DNA of 9,236 nt, taken from the IMG/VR virus record IMGVR_UViG_2636415610_000005, positions 1 to 9,236 of that record, one strand, 5' to 3'. Shown piece by piece: positions 4,476 to 4,970 of this stretch. Position 1 is the stretch's first letter. The number at the start of each line of letters is the position of its first letter. Position numbers and translations under genes: made by a program. A model generated the notes under the pieces. It saw nothing but the letters and a program-made list of their open reading frames with translations. It ran no database searches and was not told the origin of the DNA. This stretch comes from a virus (taxonomy: Duplodnaviria; Heunggongvirae; Uroviricota; Caudoviricetes).

Positions 4476-4781
4476 TCACTGAGACACTATTAAAAGCGCG
4501 TTTTCCAGTCCGGCAAATGGATCTGATACGCCTTCTGTCTGCTCCTTCTCCCACTGAAGAAGCGCATCATTCAGTGGCACTTTGACCCCCTGCGCACCGT
4601 AAACAGCTGAAACAATCTGGGCAGCCCGGATATCAGCCCGTTCGTCCCCCAGCGGACTGAACCTGTCAAATTCTGCCCACATCATGATTTCTGATGCTGA
4701 CATTTCCCGGCGTAACTCTGACAATGTGCGCCCCATCCTGAGCGCCAGCATCATCAGAAAACGCATCCCCGGAAGCGCTAC
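4476..4781 (-). CDS. T: T segment of tail assembly chaperone GT (-1 frame relative to G; normally expressed only by frameshifting from G)
   Basis: Track ORF 4476..4766 (MRFLMMLALRMGRTLSELRREMSASEIMMWAEFDRFSPLGDERADIRAAQ...). The frame is open back to the slippery site and reads ...KK-VALPGMRFLMM... after a -1 slip. Position between G and H matches lambda. Confidence 0.75.
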   Translation of the reverse strand, partial: VALPGMRFLMMLALRMGRTLSELRREMSASEIMMWAEFDRFSPLGDERADIRAAQIVSAVYGAQGVKVPLNDALLQWEKEQTEGVSDPFAGLENALLIVSQ

Positions 4782-4787
4782 TTTTTT
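4781..4787 (-). other. Programmed -1 ribosomal frameshift heptamer A-AAA-AAG at the end of G (G/GT slippery site)
   Basis: Plus strand has T8 at 4782..4789. On the minus strand, in the G frame: GTT AAA AAA AAG TAG. A -1 slip continues into the T frame. A-AAA-AAG is a classic bacterial slippery heptamer (as in dnaX). Confidence 0.65.
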
Positions 4788-4970
4788 TTAACCTCGCCGG
4801 CATCACTGATCAGTTCCAGAGACTGCCGAAGAAGCCGCGCATGCACCGGACCATACACGGCAATCACCTGTTCACGATCATCCTCTGAAAATACAGGTTG
4901 CAGTCCGGTATCACACAGAACATCAATGAACAGTTCAACATCTGCCTCCAGATTTCGGCGGGCGCGCTCC

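Follow-up and report, generated by a model that had tools for sequence, protein, structure and literature searches.

A probable programmed −1 frameshift signal at the G/T junction of an Escherichia coli prophage, stranded by an IS66-family element

The heptamer A_AAA_AAG at the junction of the tail genes G and T very probably serves as the signal for programmed −1 ribosomal frameshifting in a pair of tail-assembly chaperone genes of a prophage; in this copy an insertion sequence (IS) of the IS66 family has stranded it. The window (the whole stretch of DNA that was analyzed, 9,236 nt) is identical in sequence to E. coli O78:H4 strain APEC E12049 (NZ_CP126952.1), in which RefSeq annotates the same genes. 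On the minus strand the genes of the major tail protein, G, T and the tape measure protein follow each other in this order, which has survived the insertion with G interrupted (Table 1). G and the G-T fusion are expected to bind the product of the tape measure gene (role from PMC5009743). In the major tail protein an Ig-like domain, fused in frame, occupies the C-terminal ~80 residues (Pfam Ig_2, 1.9e-6, barely over the threshold; Ig_3, 3.3e-6).

Table 1. Features of the window (positions are those of the window).
Feature	Position	Strand	Remarks
HK97-gp10-like gene	9180-8731	minus	
Tail completion gp17-like gene	8734-8390	minus	
Major tail protein gene	8330-7626	minus	C-terminal Ig-like domain
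G 5' fragment	7429..7611	minus	60 codons (MTKNIRNL...PLSVA) and a TAA stop (7431-7429) from the IS end; RefSeq pseudogene 'missing C-terminus'
Target-site duplication, copy 1	7433..7440		TCCGTTGC on the minus strand; 8 bp
IS66-family element	4979..7432	plus	2454 bp; opposite to the tail operon; RefSeq 'IS66-like element ISEc22 family transposase'
DDE transposase gene	5857-7395	plus	Intact; Pfam DDE_Tnp_IS66 and zinc-finger, leucine-zipper and C-terminal domains
tnpB	5461-5808	plus	Intact; Pfam TnpB_IS66
tnpA	5060-5464	plus	Intact; Pfam HTH_Tnp_1
Target-site duplication, copy 2	4971..4978		TCCGTTGC on the minus strand; 8 bp, direct
G 3' fragment	4778..4978	minus	…SVAERARRNLEADVELF…DAGEVKKK, then TAG; RefSeq pseudogene 'missing N-terminus'
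Putative slippery heptamer A_AAA_AAG	4781..4787	minus	Final 7 nt of an A8-G run; between the −1-frame TAA 4790-4788 and the G stop TAG 4780-4778
T segment	4476..4781	minus	−1 frame; 101 codons and stop (4478-4476); Pfam Phage_tail_T
Terminator-like hairpin	4445-4467	minus	AACCGCTTCGGCGGTT, then a T-run; mid tail operon, where 40 nt separate T from the tape measure gene
Tail tape measure gene	4435-1202	minus	1077 aa; from ORF and annotation
Minor tail gene homologous to lambda M	1254-868	minus	
Minor tail gene homologous to lambda L	868-170	minus	

The G frame ends on the minus strand with GAG (4795-4793) GTT AAA AAA AAG (4783-4781) TAG and translates upstream of this stop as ...ELISDAGEVKKK, and the −1 frame from G4781 translates as VALPGMRFLMM...LIVSQ; sequence and translations thus agree with a reading of the window made from the letters alone (hereafter the sequence-only reading), which had proposed that a −1 slip at the end of G leads into the T frame. 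Because the −1 frame contains a TAA directly before the heptamer, it opens exactly at 4787, the heptamer's first base; with the 0 frame closed from 4780 on, ribosomes could switch frames only within these 7 nt. The slippery sequence, in the right phase, fills the whole G/T overlap window (4787-4781). AAAAAAG as such is not enriched (three copies in the window vs 1.3 expected; 23 of 200 shuffles reach three), and the other two copies are on the plus strand, one antisense to a minor tail gene (983-989) and one in tnpA in the wrong phase (5085-5091). The latter belongs to a second A7-G run (5084-5091, plus; CGT AAA AAA AGC), the phase of which is wrong for a −1 slip on A_AAA_AAG. The candidate heptamer stands out from chance by its phase, by where it lies (at the G/T junction) and by how it is conserved, and not by the motif count.

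G was restored in silico by removal of the IS and of one copy of the target-site duplication. The restored G (123 aa) matches Pfam Phage_TAC_1 (PF06222) end to end (2.4e-58; 195.9 bits against a gathering cutoff of 25; profile positions 1-124 of 124). For the −1 extension the match is Pfam Phage_tail_T (PF06223; 1.3e-18; 67.6 bits against a gathering cutoff of 25.9). The likeliest start of G is the ATG at 7611, with a Shine-Dalgarno-like GAGGA (7623-7619) 8 nt upstream. G and T together give an uninterrupted fusion of 224 aa, and the PHROG collection holds a single 224-position profile (phrog_14766) that spans both. Uninterrupted copies with 100% identity to the restored 839 nt exist in E. coli (a match was found in 902 genomes, full-length in 898), and the sister strain APEC E14033 (NZ_CP126948.1) and strain 165 are among the genomes with an uninterrupted copy. 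These family matches, together with the −1-frame T of the relatives described below, support what the sequence-only reading had put forward, a G/GT arrangement in which ribosomes slip by −1 on A_AAA_AAG.

From this anatomy we infer frameshifting at the site of the window. In an uninterrupted prophage, most ribosomes would translate G and stop at TAG, and a small fraction would slip back by one base on A_AAA_AAG, the Lys-tRNA re-pairing from AAG to AAA. The slipped ribosomes would go on to read GTA GCG CTT... and would make the G-T fusion, the junction peptide of which would be EVKKKVALPGMR (…EVKKKVALPG…). By analogy to lambda, the tape measure protein would be coated by G and by the G moiety of the fusion, the T moiety would recruit the major tail protein, and the phage would need both G and G-T, in unequal amounts. 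For lambda itself, PMC5009743 describes binding of the tape measure protein by G, alone or within G-T, binding of the major tail protein by the T part, a requirement for G and G-T at about 30:1, and wide conservation of the arrangement in long-tailed phages. According to PMC4066793, no tetramer is more shift-prone in E. coli than A_AAG, and A_AAA_AAG ranks within the top three heptamers.

The sequence-only reading had also raised the possibility of a stimulatory structure downstream of the slip site, which received no support. The 91 nt downstream of the site fold with −33.3 kcal/mol (z = −1.73; 15 of 200 shuffles fold as well), RNAalifold detected no conserved pairs downstream of the site across 37 sequences, and the segment that spans the slip site has a fold z of +1.05. 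Rfam gave nothing at the gathering threshold in the window and nothing at E ≤ 1 in 4400-5000. Two candidate stimulators were rejected: a GCGCUC/GGGCGC hairpin ~35 nt downstream, which lies inside the sequence coding for the conserved L-A-L-R-x-G-R and is broken where relatives have Lys for Arg, and a Shine-Dalgarno-like GAGG, which stands 4 nt before the heptamer, is not conserved and is spaced unlike that of dnaX. In reporter tests, a heptamer alone, with no stimulator, supported well under 1% shifting (PMC4066793). A slip of low efficiency, if it occurs at this site, fits the known need of the family for little G-T.

T is predicted to be made only as a C-terminal extension of G, i.e., as part of the G-T fusion. 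The opposite reading, in which T is an independent gene that starts at the ATG at 4766 or at the next ATG and the heptamer is incidental, has in its favor that RefSeq gives T a CDS of its own. The two annotations, however, disagree on the start (92 aa in strain 165, L001 4485-4763, vs 96 aa in the source strain, L002 5657-5947, which is 4476-4766 of the window). Only 15 of 47 relatives have Met where the window has ATG 4766, the others having Val or Thr (hand count from the junction alignment), and the only purine-rich run near this ATG is a GGGG that abuts it without a spacer, so that a spaced Shine-Dalgarno sequence is lacking. A conserved F-L-M-x-L-A-L-R block starts just past ATG 4766; because its conserved Phe and Leu codons come before the next Met, the relatives without a start codon at this position must translate that stretch all the same. 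The only Met that is conserved is preceded by conserved codons; T has no conserved start of its own and appears to be reached from G. In many relatives, moreover, the opening of the −1 frame coincides with A_AAG or lies only a few codons from it (7 nt in 6, 13 nt in 17), and in a more distant relative, Bcep176, the two genes are annotated as a joined frameshift product. We consider an independently started T very improbable. The sequence-only reading had doubted that ATG 4766 is a native start, for which the same observations speak, and it had named independent initiation of T in related phages, with a ribosome-binding site of its own, as the finding that would overturn the frameshift; in the relatives T is instead found in the −1 frame with an unconserved start.

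The names of T in RefSeq vary between 'phage tail assembly protein T' and 'DUF4035 domain-containing protein', and in the closest phage record (ON470580) the region is cut into three 'tail assembly chaperone' CDSs. The frameshift is modelled neither in the RefSeq annotations of T nor in ON470580. For annotation this matters: a free-standing T with inconsistent starts is listed by RefSeq in hundreds of E. coli genomes, and the correct product would be the G-T fusion.

Conservation of the junction was assessed in a one-genome-per-species scan, which yielded 50 species-level relatives with 46-70% identity. T follows directly after G in the −1 frame in 47 of the 50, and the other three are indel variants: L016 has an indel upstream within G and an intact junction; L025 (Serratia sp. 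L9; 1850-1870) has lost one A (A6, not A7), which moved T to the +1 frame; and in L048 (Ca. Symbiopectobacterium endolongispinus, a degenerating endosymbiont; 1850-1865) a gained A (A9) joins G and T into one reading frame already in the DNA, with a further indel upstream. A_AAG was found at the junction of all 47 intact relatives, and the junction Lys codon is AAG in 47 of 47 compared to an AAG fraction of 0.32 among the other Lys codons of the same genes. The full heptamer A_AAA_AAG was found in 28 of the 47 (the remaining 19 have G_GAA_AAG (8), A_GCA_AAG (5), G_GCA_AAG (4), A_GAA_AAG (1) and G_GTA_AAG (1)). The conservation of the heptamer, which the sequence-only reading had assumed, is therefore confirmed in part: the 28 relatives keep it, but the invariant core of the putative recoding signal is the tetramer A_AAG and not the heptamer. 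Because the full heptamer is missing in 40% of the relatives, the mechanism of the family cannot depend on two tRNAs slipping together, and predictors based on heptamers only would miss about 40% of the sites of this family.

A scan of viral contigs gave 80 loci, all of which are 99-100% identical, and is for this reason uninformative on conservation, save for two A7 variants. These are L127 and L132 (near 1860), near-identical viral contigs with A7 instead of A8. The A-run at the putative slip site is mutable or prone to sequencing error.

The counts bear on three other explanations of the site. A fortuitous A-rich string, in a gene that merely happens to finish with Lys-Lys-Lys, would agree with the lack of enrichment of AAAAAAG, but the phase of the string, the −1 frame that opens precisely at its first base, the homology to T found in this frame and the invariance of the AAG against its background fraction leave this reading effectively refuted, with a probability close to nil. 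Transcriptional slippage, in which RNA polymerase adds one A on the A8 run and normal translation then gives the same …KKKVALPG… product, is a more serious rival, since the window has a run of eight A, bacterial RNA polymerase slips efficiently on runs of nine A or T (PMC5009743), and the run varies at the DNA level (A7 in L127 and L132, A9 in L048, A6 for A7 in L025). On the other hand, A8 is shorter than the run length with documented efficient slippage, and the G that invariably follows the A-run is predicted by ribosomal slippage of Lys-tRNA and is not required by slippage of the polymerase. Furthermore, 19 of the 47 relatives have only three or four A before the G with T still in the −1 frame, which makes polymerase slippage unlikely as the mechanism of the family; for the site as a whole we rate it as improbable.

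The third explanation is a variant of the main one, namely a slip of a single tRNA at a 'shifty stop' (a concept cited in PMC5009743): with AAG in the P site and the slow TAG in the A site, the Lys-tRNA would move back onto AAA, a mechanism that would not need the upstream AAA of the heptamer. It is suggested by the combination of an invariant A_AAG with a variable upstream codon (AAA, GAA, GCA or GTA) and by the position of the stop codon, which directly adjoins AAG in 32 of the 47 relatives, including all 11 with GCA, GTA or A_GAA upstream, where the P-site tRNA cannot re-pair (hand count, not corrected for kinship). A sense codon, however, follows AAG in the other 15 relatives, as it does in lambda and HK75, and the stop is directly adjacent in none of the eight G_GAA_AAG relatives (again not corrected for kinship); the whole pattern is confounded by relatedness among the sequences, and the window itself has the full canonical heptamer, on which tandem slippage is equally possible. 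We regard the single-tRNA variant as possible but rather unlikely for this site. Somewhat more doubtful still is its extension to the whole Phage_TAC_1/T family, according to which the conserved signal would be A_AAG with an immediate stop, read by P-site slippage of a single tRNA rather than by tandem slippage. If it were true, many frameshifts of tail chaperones would have been missed by heptamer-based predictors and the frameshift efficiency would be tied to release-factor activity. Programmed −1 ribosomal frameshifting, by whichever of these slips, remains our preferred reading of the G/T junction.

In the window, however, this junction is cut off from the start of G. The element inserted into G has the characteristics of the IS66 family, i.e., three ORFs, terminal inverted repeats that begin GTAAGCGT (IS66 elements begin GTAAGCG) and an 8-bp target-site duplication. 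With three intact ORFs, both ends and a perfect 8-bp duplication the element looks fully intact and is probably still active. Of 5426 E. coli genomes, 2167 contain matches to its end sequence, chromosomal as well as plasmid-borne. The insertion point lies between codons 60 and 61 of G, where the IS contributes with its first bases a TAA that terminates the 60-codon remnant. The junction of IS and G is present in only one of 5426 complete genomes, that of APEC E12049, in which G is annotated as two pseudogene pieces. Because uninterrupted copies that are 100% identical occur in many genomes and the junction in this one only, the insertion is recent and strain-specific.

Ribosomes that initiate at the G start terminate at 7431-7429. 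Past the IS, the last stop in the G frame is at 4993, and no in-frame ATG follows, only GTG codons at 4867, 4858 and 4846, none of which has a well-spaced Shine-Dalgarno sequence; a promoter-like site reading out of the IS on the minus strand was not found. With translation of G ending at the TAA of the IS and no better starts beyond it, the slippery site and T are stranded, as the sequence-only reading had proposed and as the IS borders, the target duplication, the stop made by the IS and the pseudogene annotation of G in RefSeq corroborate. Since no start remains for the 3' fragment of G, the slippery site and T, APEC E12049 is expected to make neither G nor G-T. We infer that its prophage should be unable to build tails unless it is complemented by another prophage. 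The downstream genes keep their own starts, and transcription may proceed through the IS.

The case is thus one of a known kind of recoding in an ordinary lambda-like prophage combined with a strain-specific gene disruption, and it adds little new biology. For the biology of the strain, its consequence is that the prophage of APEC E12049 is predicted to be tail-defective through a recent IS66-family insertion. G/G-T frameshifting is among the best-known recoding events of tailed phages, and the same heptamer has already been annotated as a frameshift site in a relative.

Among known systems, the identical heptamer invites comparison with dnaX of E. coli. Frameshifting in dnaX is helped by an upstream Shine-Dalgarno-like stimulator ~10 nt away and by a downstream stem-loop, reaches ~50% and yields a shorter product. 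The heptamer A_AAA_AAG and the shift-prone Lys-tRNA are the same in both (PMC4066793, PMC5009743), but the shifted product of the window would be the longer one, and of the dnaX-type cassette the window site has the heptamer alone.

The likeness to G/G-T of lambda (Levin, Hendrix and Casjens 1993; Xu, Hendrix and Duda 2004, 2013, 2014; cited in PMC5009743) is closer. Lambda and the window share the gene order (major tail protein, G, −1-frame T, tape measure protein), a slip site of the X_XXA_AAG type near the end of G, the assignment of T to Pfam Phage_tail_T (54.1 bits for lambda T) and the lack of a known strong stimulatory structure. They differ in that G_GGA_AAG of lambda is located 15 nt before the G stop, whereas A_AAA_AAG of the window abuts the stop, and in that lambda T overlaps H, whereas in the window 40 nt, which include a terminator-like hairpin, separate T from the tape measure gene. 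In Pfam, the sole match of lambda G is Phage_TAC_2 (PF06894) and that of the window's G is Phage_TAC_1. BLASTP revealed no significant similarity of the window's G to lambda G (E = 0.5) or of its T to lambda T, the kinship of the latter two being seen only via the Pfam profile. The label 'lambda-type', given to the pair in the sequence-only reading, therefore applies to the architecture and to the T family but not to the G family.

The closest characterized phages are HK97-like (HK75, HK446, HK106) and Stx-converting phages, which are 61-65% identical over G-T. In HK75 (genes HK75_11 and HK75_12) the families of G and T are the same as in the window and T is in the −1 frame, but the site is a non-canonical G_GAA_AAG followed by five sense codons (L135 658-687), and an extra small gene lies between T and the tape measure gene. 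A terminator is annotated in HK75 just before the tape measure gene, at a relative position that matches that of the hairpin in the window (L135 1227-1251). Burkholderia phage Bcep176 (~36% identical) shares A_AAA_AAG at the G/T junction with the window. Its gp69/gp69' is recorded as a frameshift CDS joined from two pieces ('lambda G equivalent / lambda T equivalent'), and its G, unlike that of the window, runs for 11 codons past the slip site. The gene order, an in-phase slippery sequence and a startless second ORF, in an arrangement that is conserved among the relatives, are among the features of a G/G-T-type pair, and these were found in the window.
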